Below, in pieces: positions 27,458 to 27,645 of a DNA stretch of 64,000 nucleotides. This stretch comes from Dehalococcoidia bacterium (GTDB taxonomy: Bacteria; Chloroflexota; Dehalococcoidia; UBA2979), in NCBI GenBank assembly GCA_963667465.2, contig CAXXDN010000002.1:1-64000 (forward strand), in the 5' to 3' direction. The position numbers and the translations under genes were made by a program. Within the stretch, counting starts at the first letter, position 1, and each line of letters starts with the position of its first letter. The notes under the pieces were generated by a model, which saw only the letters and a list, made by a program, of their open reading frames with translations, ran no database searches and had not been told where the DNA came from.

Positions 27458-27645
27458 TCCGGAAGGCCGCAGGTACGCTCGCCGTCATCCACCTTACGAA
27501 TCAGCGATCCGCCGCATGTCCCCATCAGAGGTTCACGCACCGAACAGCGCCGGTGGCAACACCCCCCAGGCCGTCGAGCGACAGGGGGCACTGAGCCATG
27601 CCGGCGCTGCCGGACTTCCCGGTCTCAGACGCTACTGAGGCCGTA
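27458..27645 (-). ncRNA. Putative IS110 bridge RNA (5' hairpin, target-binding loop, donor-binding loop)
   Basis: Stems GCAGCGCCGG/CCGGCGCTGT, CTCAG/CTGAG and GGTGCGT/GCGTACC; loop sequences match the element ends and the target; RNA ends are approximate. Confidence 0.72.

Follow-up and report, generated by a model that had tools for sequence, protein, structure and literature searches.

A C-run-targeting IS110-group element in a Dehalococcoidia genome very probably encodes a bridge RNA in its left non-coding end

We followed up a first-pass annotation of a 64,000-nucleotide (nt) stretch of DNA from a Dehalococcoidia bacterium (assembly GCA_963667465.2, contig CAXXDN010000002.1, positions 1 to 64,000; hereafter the window), which had proposed that the non-coding end of an IS110-family insertion sequence, at 27458-27645, encodes a guide RNA matching both the element ends and the insertion target. 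The IS110 group is built with a long left end and a short right end (PMC11208160), and bridge RNAs, known from IS621 of Escherichia coli (Durrant et al. 2024, PMC11208160; Hiraizumi et al. 2024, PMC11208158), have been predicted in 85.7% of its elements (PMC11208160). It is very likely that the stretch under study is the left (5') non-coding end of an intact IS110-group element and that it encodes such a bridge RNA. The protein belongs to the family, the RNA structure is conserved among relatives, and three guide segments covary with their DNA partners. Judged by its sequence, this is an ordinary member of the IS110 family, presumably a complete RNA-guided recombinase element, with a run of C's as its target.

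The element lies on the minus strand, from about 27659 to 26153, and interrupts a ParE-like toxin gene. The genome holds three copies (the one in the window, one identical to it and one with four differences), each in a different site, and because the three copies occupy different sites the boundaries of the element could be fixed. Its termini are TTAC at 27657 on the left and ACA at 26155 on the right, the last bases being GATGGGGACA. The near-identical copies in different sites suggest that the element was recently active. Consistent with the arrangement known from the IS110 group, the left non-coding end, which starts with TTACTTTC and would encode the predicted bridge RNA, is 230 nt long (27428-27657, minus strand), and the right end, 58 nt long (26155-26212, minus strand), contains TTGACG (26175-26170), a candidate -35 box, and the left donor sequence GATGGGGACA (26164-26155). 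The left flank, which is also the left target (27660-27677, minus strand), is the start of the toxin gene, GTG CAT CGC GCC A plus a run of C's; the gene is interrupted after 12 bases and a 7-C run. The last two of the seven C's at 27664-27658 would form the left copy of a CC core (27658-27659), as read from sister subgroups described below. On the right, at 26149-26154, the other core copy (CC, 26154-26153) and the CCCC of the right target together make six C's, after which the toxin frame resumes (RFWREF...). An uninterrupted orthologue of the toxin gene in a genome of the same genus (L097) reads ...GAGCCACCCCCCGCTTCTGG... and bears out the target, CACCCCCC, that the first-pass annotation had reconstructed.

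The recombinase gene (26213-27427, minus strand) begins with a GTG after GGGAG and encodes 404 amino acids, with predicted catalytic positions at D14, D62, D104, D107 and S319. An N-terminal RuvC-like DEDD domain (DEDD_Tnp_IS110, PF01548, E = 6.3e-41, spanning profile positions 1-155 of 155) is followed by a C-terminal Tnp domain (Transposase_20, PF02371, E = 1.1e-23), and the protein scores 217.3 bits, over a cut-off of 140, with NCBIfam NF033542, 'IS110 family RNA-guided transposase'. These matches confirm the family to which the protein had been assigned from the letters alone. Alignment of a profile of 15 relatives with IS621 pairs D14 with D11, D62 with E60, D104 with D102, D107 with D105 and S319 with S241. 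D14, D62, D107 and S319 are invariant in all 15 relatives and D104 is present in at least 90%. Asp62, within VVDQPG, stands opposite the catalytic Glu60 of IS621, and its invariance in the 15 relatives means that the clade carries Asp where the family name expects Glu. As read from this alignment, the RuvC-like domain is D-D-D-D instead of DEDD, the acidic residue being retained but not as Glu. The term 'DQP-type subgroup', under which the element had been filed, is the annotation's own coinage; the Asp behind it is the residue whose alignment and invariance are shown here.

Four guide segments can be located in the left end, all on the minus strand. In the first loop the 5' side has the sense of the left target and core: the left target guide AGTGCCCCC (27584-27592) runs in the same sense as the left flank plus core and is followed by TG. 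This guide had been overlooked; the others were already listed. The 3' side is complementary to the core and right target, with the right target guide GGGGGG (27562-27567) pairing at 6/6 positions with the core CC and the CCCC of the right flank. The TG that follows (27560-27561), at the handshake-guide position of IS621, has its complement in the element's final CA (26156-26155) and, in this copy, in the CA that precedes the target's C run as well; taken together, guide and TG (GGGGGGTG at 27567-27560) match 8/8 of CACCCCCC in the empty orthologue. The second loop is built in the same manner, its 5' side having the sense of the right end and its 3' side being complementary to the core and left end. 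The left donor guide GATGGGGACA (27517-27526) is identical at 10/10 positions to the last 10 bases of the element (26164-26155), and the right donor guide GTAAGG (27492-27497) is complementary at 6/6 positions to CC plus TTAC of the left end. It is followed by TG at the second handshake-guide position (27490-27491), giving GTAAGGTG at 27497-27490. Every coordinate and match named in the first-pass annotation was recovered on the minus strand, including the exact far-end identity, and the guides can be read in the window together with the donor ends and the target flanks.

Chance resemblance could be suspected in a genome of 70-71% guanine plus cytosine (G+C) that holds 553 C/G runs of six, and GGGGGG was indeed present in 3610 of 20000 dinucleotide-preserving shuffles of the 230-base left end. 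GTAAGG appeared in 596 shuffles and the far-end 10-mer in 6; all three together appeared in 0. The shuffles, along with tests of structure conservation and guide-DNA covariation across 80 loci (below), refute an accidental match, to which we attach a negligible probability.

Relatives were collected in a scan of one genome per species, which gave 132 protein relatives; the best 80 of 132 were kept (55-96% identical) and come from assemblies of Dehalococcoidia, Acidimicrobiia and other Actinomycetota. For the RNA, the left end of the window was aligned with those of 60 relatives that have a recognisable left junction and a distinct RNA sequence, making 61 non-redundant left ends. RNAalifold on these 61 found 35 pairs, 13 of them with changes on both sides, and recovered the outer stems of both loops. 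A bridge-type structure written by hand from the window sequence (38 pairs in 7 helices) was paired in 89.2% of alignment cells, as opposed to 34.3-49.9% when the partners were slid by 1-3 columns. Changes on both sides affected 22 of the 38 pairs (shuffle mean 14.4, reached by 0 of 500 shuffles), the covariation score was 0.243 compared with 0.137 in shuffles (0/500), and none of the 500 reached the observed value in any of five measures.

The structure consists of a 5' stem-loop and two stem-bounded internal loops, each with an inner hairpin, the inner hairpins being the weaker parts (all coordinates on the minus strand). The 5' stem-loop (helix 1, 27620-27643) has 8 pairs with one C/A mismatch; all 8 change on both sides, with 67.8% of cells paired in a poorly aligned region. 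The target-binding loop module (27544-27610) is closed by an outer stem of 10 pairs (helix 2, 27610-27601 with 27553-27544), the outermost a G-U, in which 7/10 pairs change on both sides and 94.1% of cells are paired, and by a second stem (helix 3, 27597-27595 with 27557-27555) that is 100% paired. Its inner hairpin (helix 4, 27572-27583) is weak, at 81.7% paired with no change on both sides. In the donor-binding loop module (27472-27541), 5/6 pairs of the outer stem (helix 5, 27541-27536 with 27477-27472; 97.5% paired) change on both sides, the second stem (helix 6, 27531-27528 with 27486-27482) is 99.6% paired, and the inner hairpin (helix 7, 27504-27515) is 95.1% paired with one pair changing on both sides. 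The 5' hairpin and the 10-pair stem are those that the first-pass annotation had seen, and the conserved structure in homologs that it had named as a check was found across the relatives.

Further support for a guide function is provided by covariation between the loops and the DNA. Guide segments were taken by alignment column and flanks by junction motifs at 81 loci (2 of 83 being without the RNA), and partners were permuted among distinct pairs in 10000 trials; as the loci are related and the tests ignore kinship, the resulting frequencies are not true probabilities. The left target guide agreed with the left flank at 435/621 positions (null 394.0 +/- 6.1; 69 pairs, 26 guides), the right target guide with the right flank at 401/567 (null 377.6 +/- 4.3; 63 pairs, 7 guides) and the left donor guide with the right end at 144/153 (null 127.1 +/- 3.2; 17 pairs), and in each test 0 of 10000 permutations did as well. 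Loop-target covariation, which had likewise been proposed as a check, is therefore present. Examples are the left target guides ATTTGGCCC, AACTGGCCC, AAGTGGCCC and AAATGGCCC, whose adjoining flanks carry the identical nine bases (L018 and L093, L019, L026, L063 and L069), while five more loci of that subgroup match the left flank at 7/9. On the right, CAAGTGG goes with CCACTTG, GGGTGG with CCACCC and TGAAAGGG with CCCTTTCA. The left donor guides GACAGGAACA, GACGGGGACA, GACAGGGACA and GATAGGGACA each match their own right end, which amounts to at least four joint changes. At four loci (L016, L027, L068 and L070), representing four independent insertions, the right junction reads ACA-CC-T-CCCC..., with a T at the third right-target position that makes one mismatch to the G6 guide.

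These results bear on whether the left end could instead be DNA recognised by the protein through sub-terminal repeats, or a messenger RNA leader that controls translation, with the matches being DNA repeats. Three points favour such a role: the left donor guide repeats the right end in direct orientation, the recombinase start and its ribosome-binding site come immediately after the stretch, and no RNA evidence was obtained, a single RNA run containing 0.05 of the sampled words. Neither role explains why loop bases track site-specific host flanks or why stems stay paired through changes on both sides, and the same architecture is experimentally an RNA guide in IS621 (PMC11208160, PMC11208158). 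We consider a DNA or leader function highly improbable.

Several observations weigh against a bridge RNA or complicate it. The N-terminal alignment with IS621 is weak when taken alone (domain E = 0.19), the Pfam match spanning the whole domain. Folded as a single sequence, the stretch does no better than chance (z = -1.51; 13/200 shuffles fold as well), and in the minimum-energy form the G run is the partner of the C run, so that the two target guides pair with each other. The structure rests on the comparison with relatives and not on this fold. No Rfam match was found in 25500-28500 at E up to 1, it not being established that Rfam 15 includes a bridge-RNA family, and the low word content of the single RNA run has been given above. 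In this copy the left target guide matches the flank at 5/9 positions, in the C run only, and in the main group overall the bases upstream of the C run match that guide poorly. The right donor guide is invariant save at one locus, where it is mismatched, and being invariant it gives no covariation. The permutation tests carry no correction for kinship, although the flanks are host DNA at independent sites. Finally, the C counts at the junctions do not add up, as set out further below.

The core dinucleotide of the bridge RNA element would be CC, as judged from sister subgroups for which empty sites exist. In the TGG-CCCC-ACC subgroup, empty paralogous sites have 4 C's, and after insertion there are 4 to the left of the element and 2 to its right; at L075 the C counts are 5, 4 and 3, and occupied minus empty is again 2. 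These counts indicate a contribution of exactly two C's from the element; in these subgroups target and element junction have no dinucleotide in common other than CC. The first-pass annotation had read a CA core from the TG at the end of both right-hand guides. On that account the same bridge RNA would use 8-base guides, GGGGGGTG and GTAAGGTG, that take in the TG as complement of the core, and the core CA itself would form the end of the left donor guide. In its favour, GATGGGGACA does end in CA, GTAAGGTG is complementary to CACCTTAC of a two-C junction so that the donor guides would overlap on CA, and CACCCCCC is present in the empty orthologue. CA directly precedes the C run in 13/69 left flanks, which is above composition and would give the TG after the right target guide a partner in the target. 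Two loci also hint at exchange to the left of CC: at the right junction of L025, GCC (the last three bases of the target) replaces ACA, and the left flank of L073 ends in AACACC, resembling the element's own end. Either could be a trace of such an exchange or of insertion into a donor-like site.

Most of the evidence points away from CA. In the two further genome copies the C run is preceded by TG and AG, not CA, and the TGG-CCCC-ACC subgroup and L075 share only CC with their targets. Among 69 distinct left flanks, the two bases preceding the junction CC are CC in 68 and CA in 1. Whatever the target, each of the four guide segments is followed by TG in 78-81 of the 81 loci (right target guide 81, right donor guide 80, left-hand guides 80 and 78), and its presence after the left-hand guides as well marks it as a fixed feature of the RNA and not a readout of the core. 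After the right-hand guides it stands where IS621 has its handshake guides, dinucleotides that, once strands have been exchanged, pair with positions 6-7 of the other DNA (PMC11208158). In our loci target positions 6-7 are CC in 68/69, which pairs with only one of the two TG bases, and the TG itself offers no variation. Since the toxin gene has CA before its C run, the 8-base match noted in the first pass is real but not general. We regard a CA core as unlikely and retain CC.

Given a CC core, a mechanism can be proposed along the lines of IS621. The transcript would be a bridge RNA of about 175-190 nt with a 5' hairpin, a target-binding loop and a donor-binding loop. In the target loop AGUGCCCCC, the sense of left flank plus core, would pair with the bottom strand; in the donor loop GAUGGGGACA would carry the sense of the element's right end, and the partner of GUAAGG would be the CC and TTAC of the left end. 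Both right-hand guides are followed by a UG that would occupy the handshake position and that is complementary to the terminal CA of the element. A copy may leave as a circle or a single-stranded circle in which the ends are joined as ACA-CC-TTAC. Such a junction would place the -35-like TTGACG within 18 bases of the -10-like TACTTT, from which bridge RNA and recombinase messenger RNA would be made; the donor loop would then hold the junction and the target loop the C-rich site, with strands exchanged at CC. The integrated element runs in the same direction as the toxin-antitoxin genes, and read-through from the promoter of those genes could also supply RNA. All steps beyond guide matching are modelled on IS621, including that the RNA would be made and bound, the cut sites, the circular intermediate and the junction promoter.

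The two boxes of the would-be right-left junction promoter can be compared among relatives. TTGACG and the candidate -10 box TACTTT (27656-27651, minus strand), kept as TAC[CT]TT in relatives, are 18 bases apart with CC between the ends, and the spacing is 17 in most relatives (TTGACA ... TACCTT). A pattern search of metagenome contigs (right end, 0-8 bases, left end) returned 104 stretches, 103 of which were chance by context. The one real case (L119, a contig of 1918 bases) has an element relative followed by a second left end with 7 C's between; as this contig opens with a flank and the first left end, a tandem (head-to-tail) pair is the likelier reading, a junction read-through being the other, and the case does not prove a circle. 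When contigs of four runs were placed on 25950-27850, none joined across the element or from the right end back to the left end. No circle junction was found among the metagenome contigs and the contigs of the four runs.

The length of the C run is where a 2-base core meets difficulty. In the subgroup of the window five C's close the left target guide, and the right target guide consists of six G's. At the sites themselves, 35/46 distinct ones have a run of 5 before TTAC, and 37/44 have a run of 6 or 7 after ACA. With the two guides in register and overlapping by 2 bases, the specified tract would be C9, yet the empty counterparts of all three genome copies are C6: the toxin orthologue, in frame as T-P-R, for the copy in the window, two neighbouring 54-base repeat units for the second copy and three relatives for the third. 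The 54-base tandem repeat (2.9 copies, L002 1352-1507, genome C1) has GGATTG/GGAGTG-CCCCCC-GACGTC in its units, and the second element copy occupies the next unit. Empty sites were sought by flank searches of this genome and a fuzzy sequence search and were credible only for L001, L002, L018, L019, L026 and L075; the remaining 11/21 rows of the fuzzy search, including one more for L002, were matched by chance in G+C-rich sequence and had C runs of 1-3. The junction pairs of the three copies total 13, 11 and 12 C's compared with 6 in the empty site, where a 2-base core predicts 8. Put differently, occupied minus empty is the element plus 7, 5 and 6 C's where 2 are expected, and 2 is what the four empty sites of sister subgroups give. 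Three runs (X1, X2 and X3) reproduce the window at both junction pieces, 25950-26177 and 27633-27850, and with the C counts at this site the same in the contigs of all three, an assembly slip of one sample is not the explanation.

The surplus C's may reflect tracts that grew before insertion, a donor that carries the run, or an exchange in which length is not conserved. If the donor had 5 C's the sums would fit, but one donor guide would lie 3 bases from the core and the promoter spacer would be 20-23 bases; the box spacing argues for two bases between the joined ends. Strands each cut in the register of their own guide would give (2,6) or (5,3), never (5,6), and insertion of the top strand only would give (2,6). 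Tract expansion before insertion needs no new chemistry, yet would be required at all three sites. None of these four schemes, worked through by hand, proved satisfactory. A further possibility, which we put forward tentatively and think unlikely, is that in the C-run subgroup the guides (5 C's and 6 G's) each pair fully with C6 on opposite strands, out of register, so that insertion is not length-conserving and repeated insertion and loss make C tracts grow. The junction C runs do track the guide run lengths, with 3-5 bases added to what a 2-base core would give. C/G runs with a length of 9-15 number 7 in the genome, far in excess of the fall-off of shorter ones (runs of 5, 6, 7 and 8 number 3578, 553, 65 and 5), and growing tracts would fit these seven, one of which is C6-C7 in four relatives. 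This last, a C15 run at genome C1:860996 (L218), is C6, C6, C7 and C6 in 4/7 loci, these four from genomes of the genus, with one lacking the run and two not alignable, and the homology of L218 with its relatives begins at the run, which lies at a synteny break. Two other long C/G runs tested as scars had no alignable orthologue at the run.

The surroundings of the element in the window are those of a broken toxin gene. The remainder of the ParE-like gene (25913-26149, minus strand) matches PF24732 with E = 7.6e-5 and 23.1 bits, below the cut-off of 24.4, and also has an in-frame TAG at 26002-26000 (minus strand); since the TAG adds to the insertion, the gene is broken twice. Upstream, an open reading frame of 66 amino acids (27678-27878, minus strand), whose TAG overlaps the GTG of the toxin gene, is presumably the antitoxin; it has no significant family match (best Pfam E = 0.18). 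In the run contigs placed on 25950-27850 the element forms a repeat piece of 1514 bases (26149-27662), and other samples show it next to several other flanks. Contigs from runs labelled as sponge metagenomes, and from runs of other organisms in other studies, carry this insertion with identical junctions.

A second, distant IS110-family element of about 1.51 kb occurs on contigs C1 and C2 of the genome (e.g. L004; C2:1272078-1273621, C1:862839-864354) in no fewer than 10 copies that are nearly identical. Its product shares 30% identity with the recombinase of the window over residues 99-395, its ends are TAATGGGGTTCGACC... and ...GGGGTGTC with a TTGACG near the right end, and it is always found inside a REP-like palindrome, CCCTCACCCCC.CCC / TCTCCC..GGAGAGGG.

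The element shares with IS621, as that system is described, a recombinase that combines a RuvC-like domain with a Tnp domain carrying a catalytic Ser, a long left and a short right end, and an RNA, here a predicted one, in which a 5' stem-loop is followed by target-binding and donor-binding loops whose 3' sides are complementary to core and right half-site. Also common to both are a 9-nt left target guide, two fixed bases after the right-hand guides, at the place of the IS621 handshake guides, a dinucleotide core (putative here) at both junctions, and a -35-like box in the right end with a -10-like box in the left end. The two differ in the core (CC here, CT in IS621; PMC11208160, PMC11208158), in the second catalytic residue (Asp here, Glu in IS621) and in protein length, 404 amino acids here as against a 328-residue chain in the solved structure, with only the C-terminal half aligning well (E = 4e-17). 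Further differences are a right target guide of 6-9 nt here versus 4, a left donor guide that ends short of the core and a homopolymer C run as target, and the present element is known from sequence alone. Among other members of the family, the ISCro4 bridge recombinase (PDB 9t56) is distant (E = 1.3e-14) and aligns over both domains with D62 opposite its catalytic Glu; the IS622 bridge recombinase belongs here too. The IS1111 group with its seekRNA also combines a DEDD-type recombinase with a guide RNA reading target and donor (PMC11208160, PMC13604230), but there the RNA lies in a long right end and there are long sub-terminal inverted repeats, whereas here it lies in the left end (PMC11208160). 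CazIS110-1, of the same family, and models of copy-out, top-strand insertion and half-matches bear on entry into sites that match the guide in part (10.1101/2025.10.25.684509, 10.64898/2026.08.31.748434); neither abstract covers homopolymer targets or over-long junctions. A literature search found no paper that joins IS110, bridge RNA and homopolymer, supplementary tables being outside its scope (those of Durrant et al. may already list the subgroup), and a search on IS110, Dehalococcoidia and sponge returned no paper containing IS110.

As one more bridge-RNA element this one adds little, since such RNAs are predicted in 85.7% of the group and the NCBI family is already named RNA-guided. Its relatives form a natural record of reprogramming, in which close relatives differ in 3-4 guide bases and their sites differ in the same bases, and the Asp-for-Glu subgroup with its longer right target guide may be of some use for mining orthologues. 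The one lead worth a bench test is the homopolymer target, at which the length bookkeeping of the accepted model fails to close. If the out-of-register scheme were true, homopolymer bridge recombination would break the rule of conservative exchange at a fixed dinucleotide.

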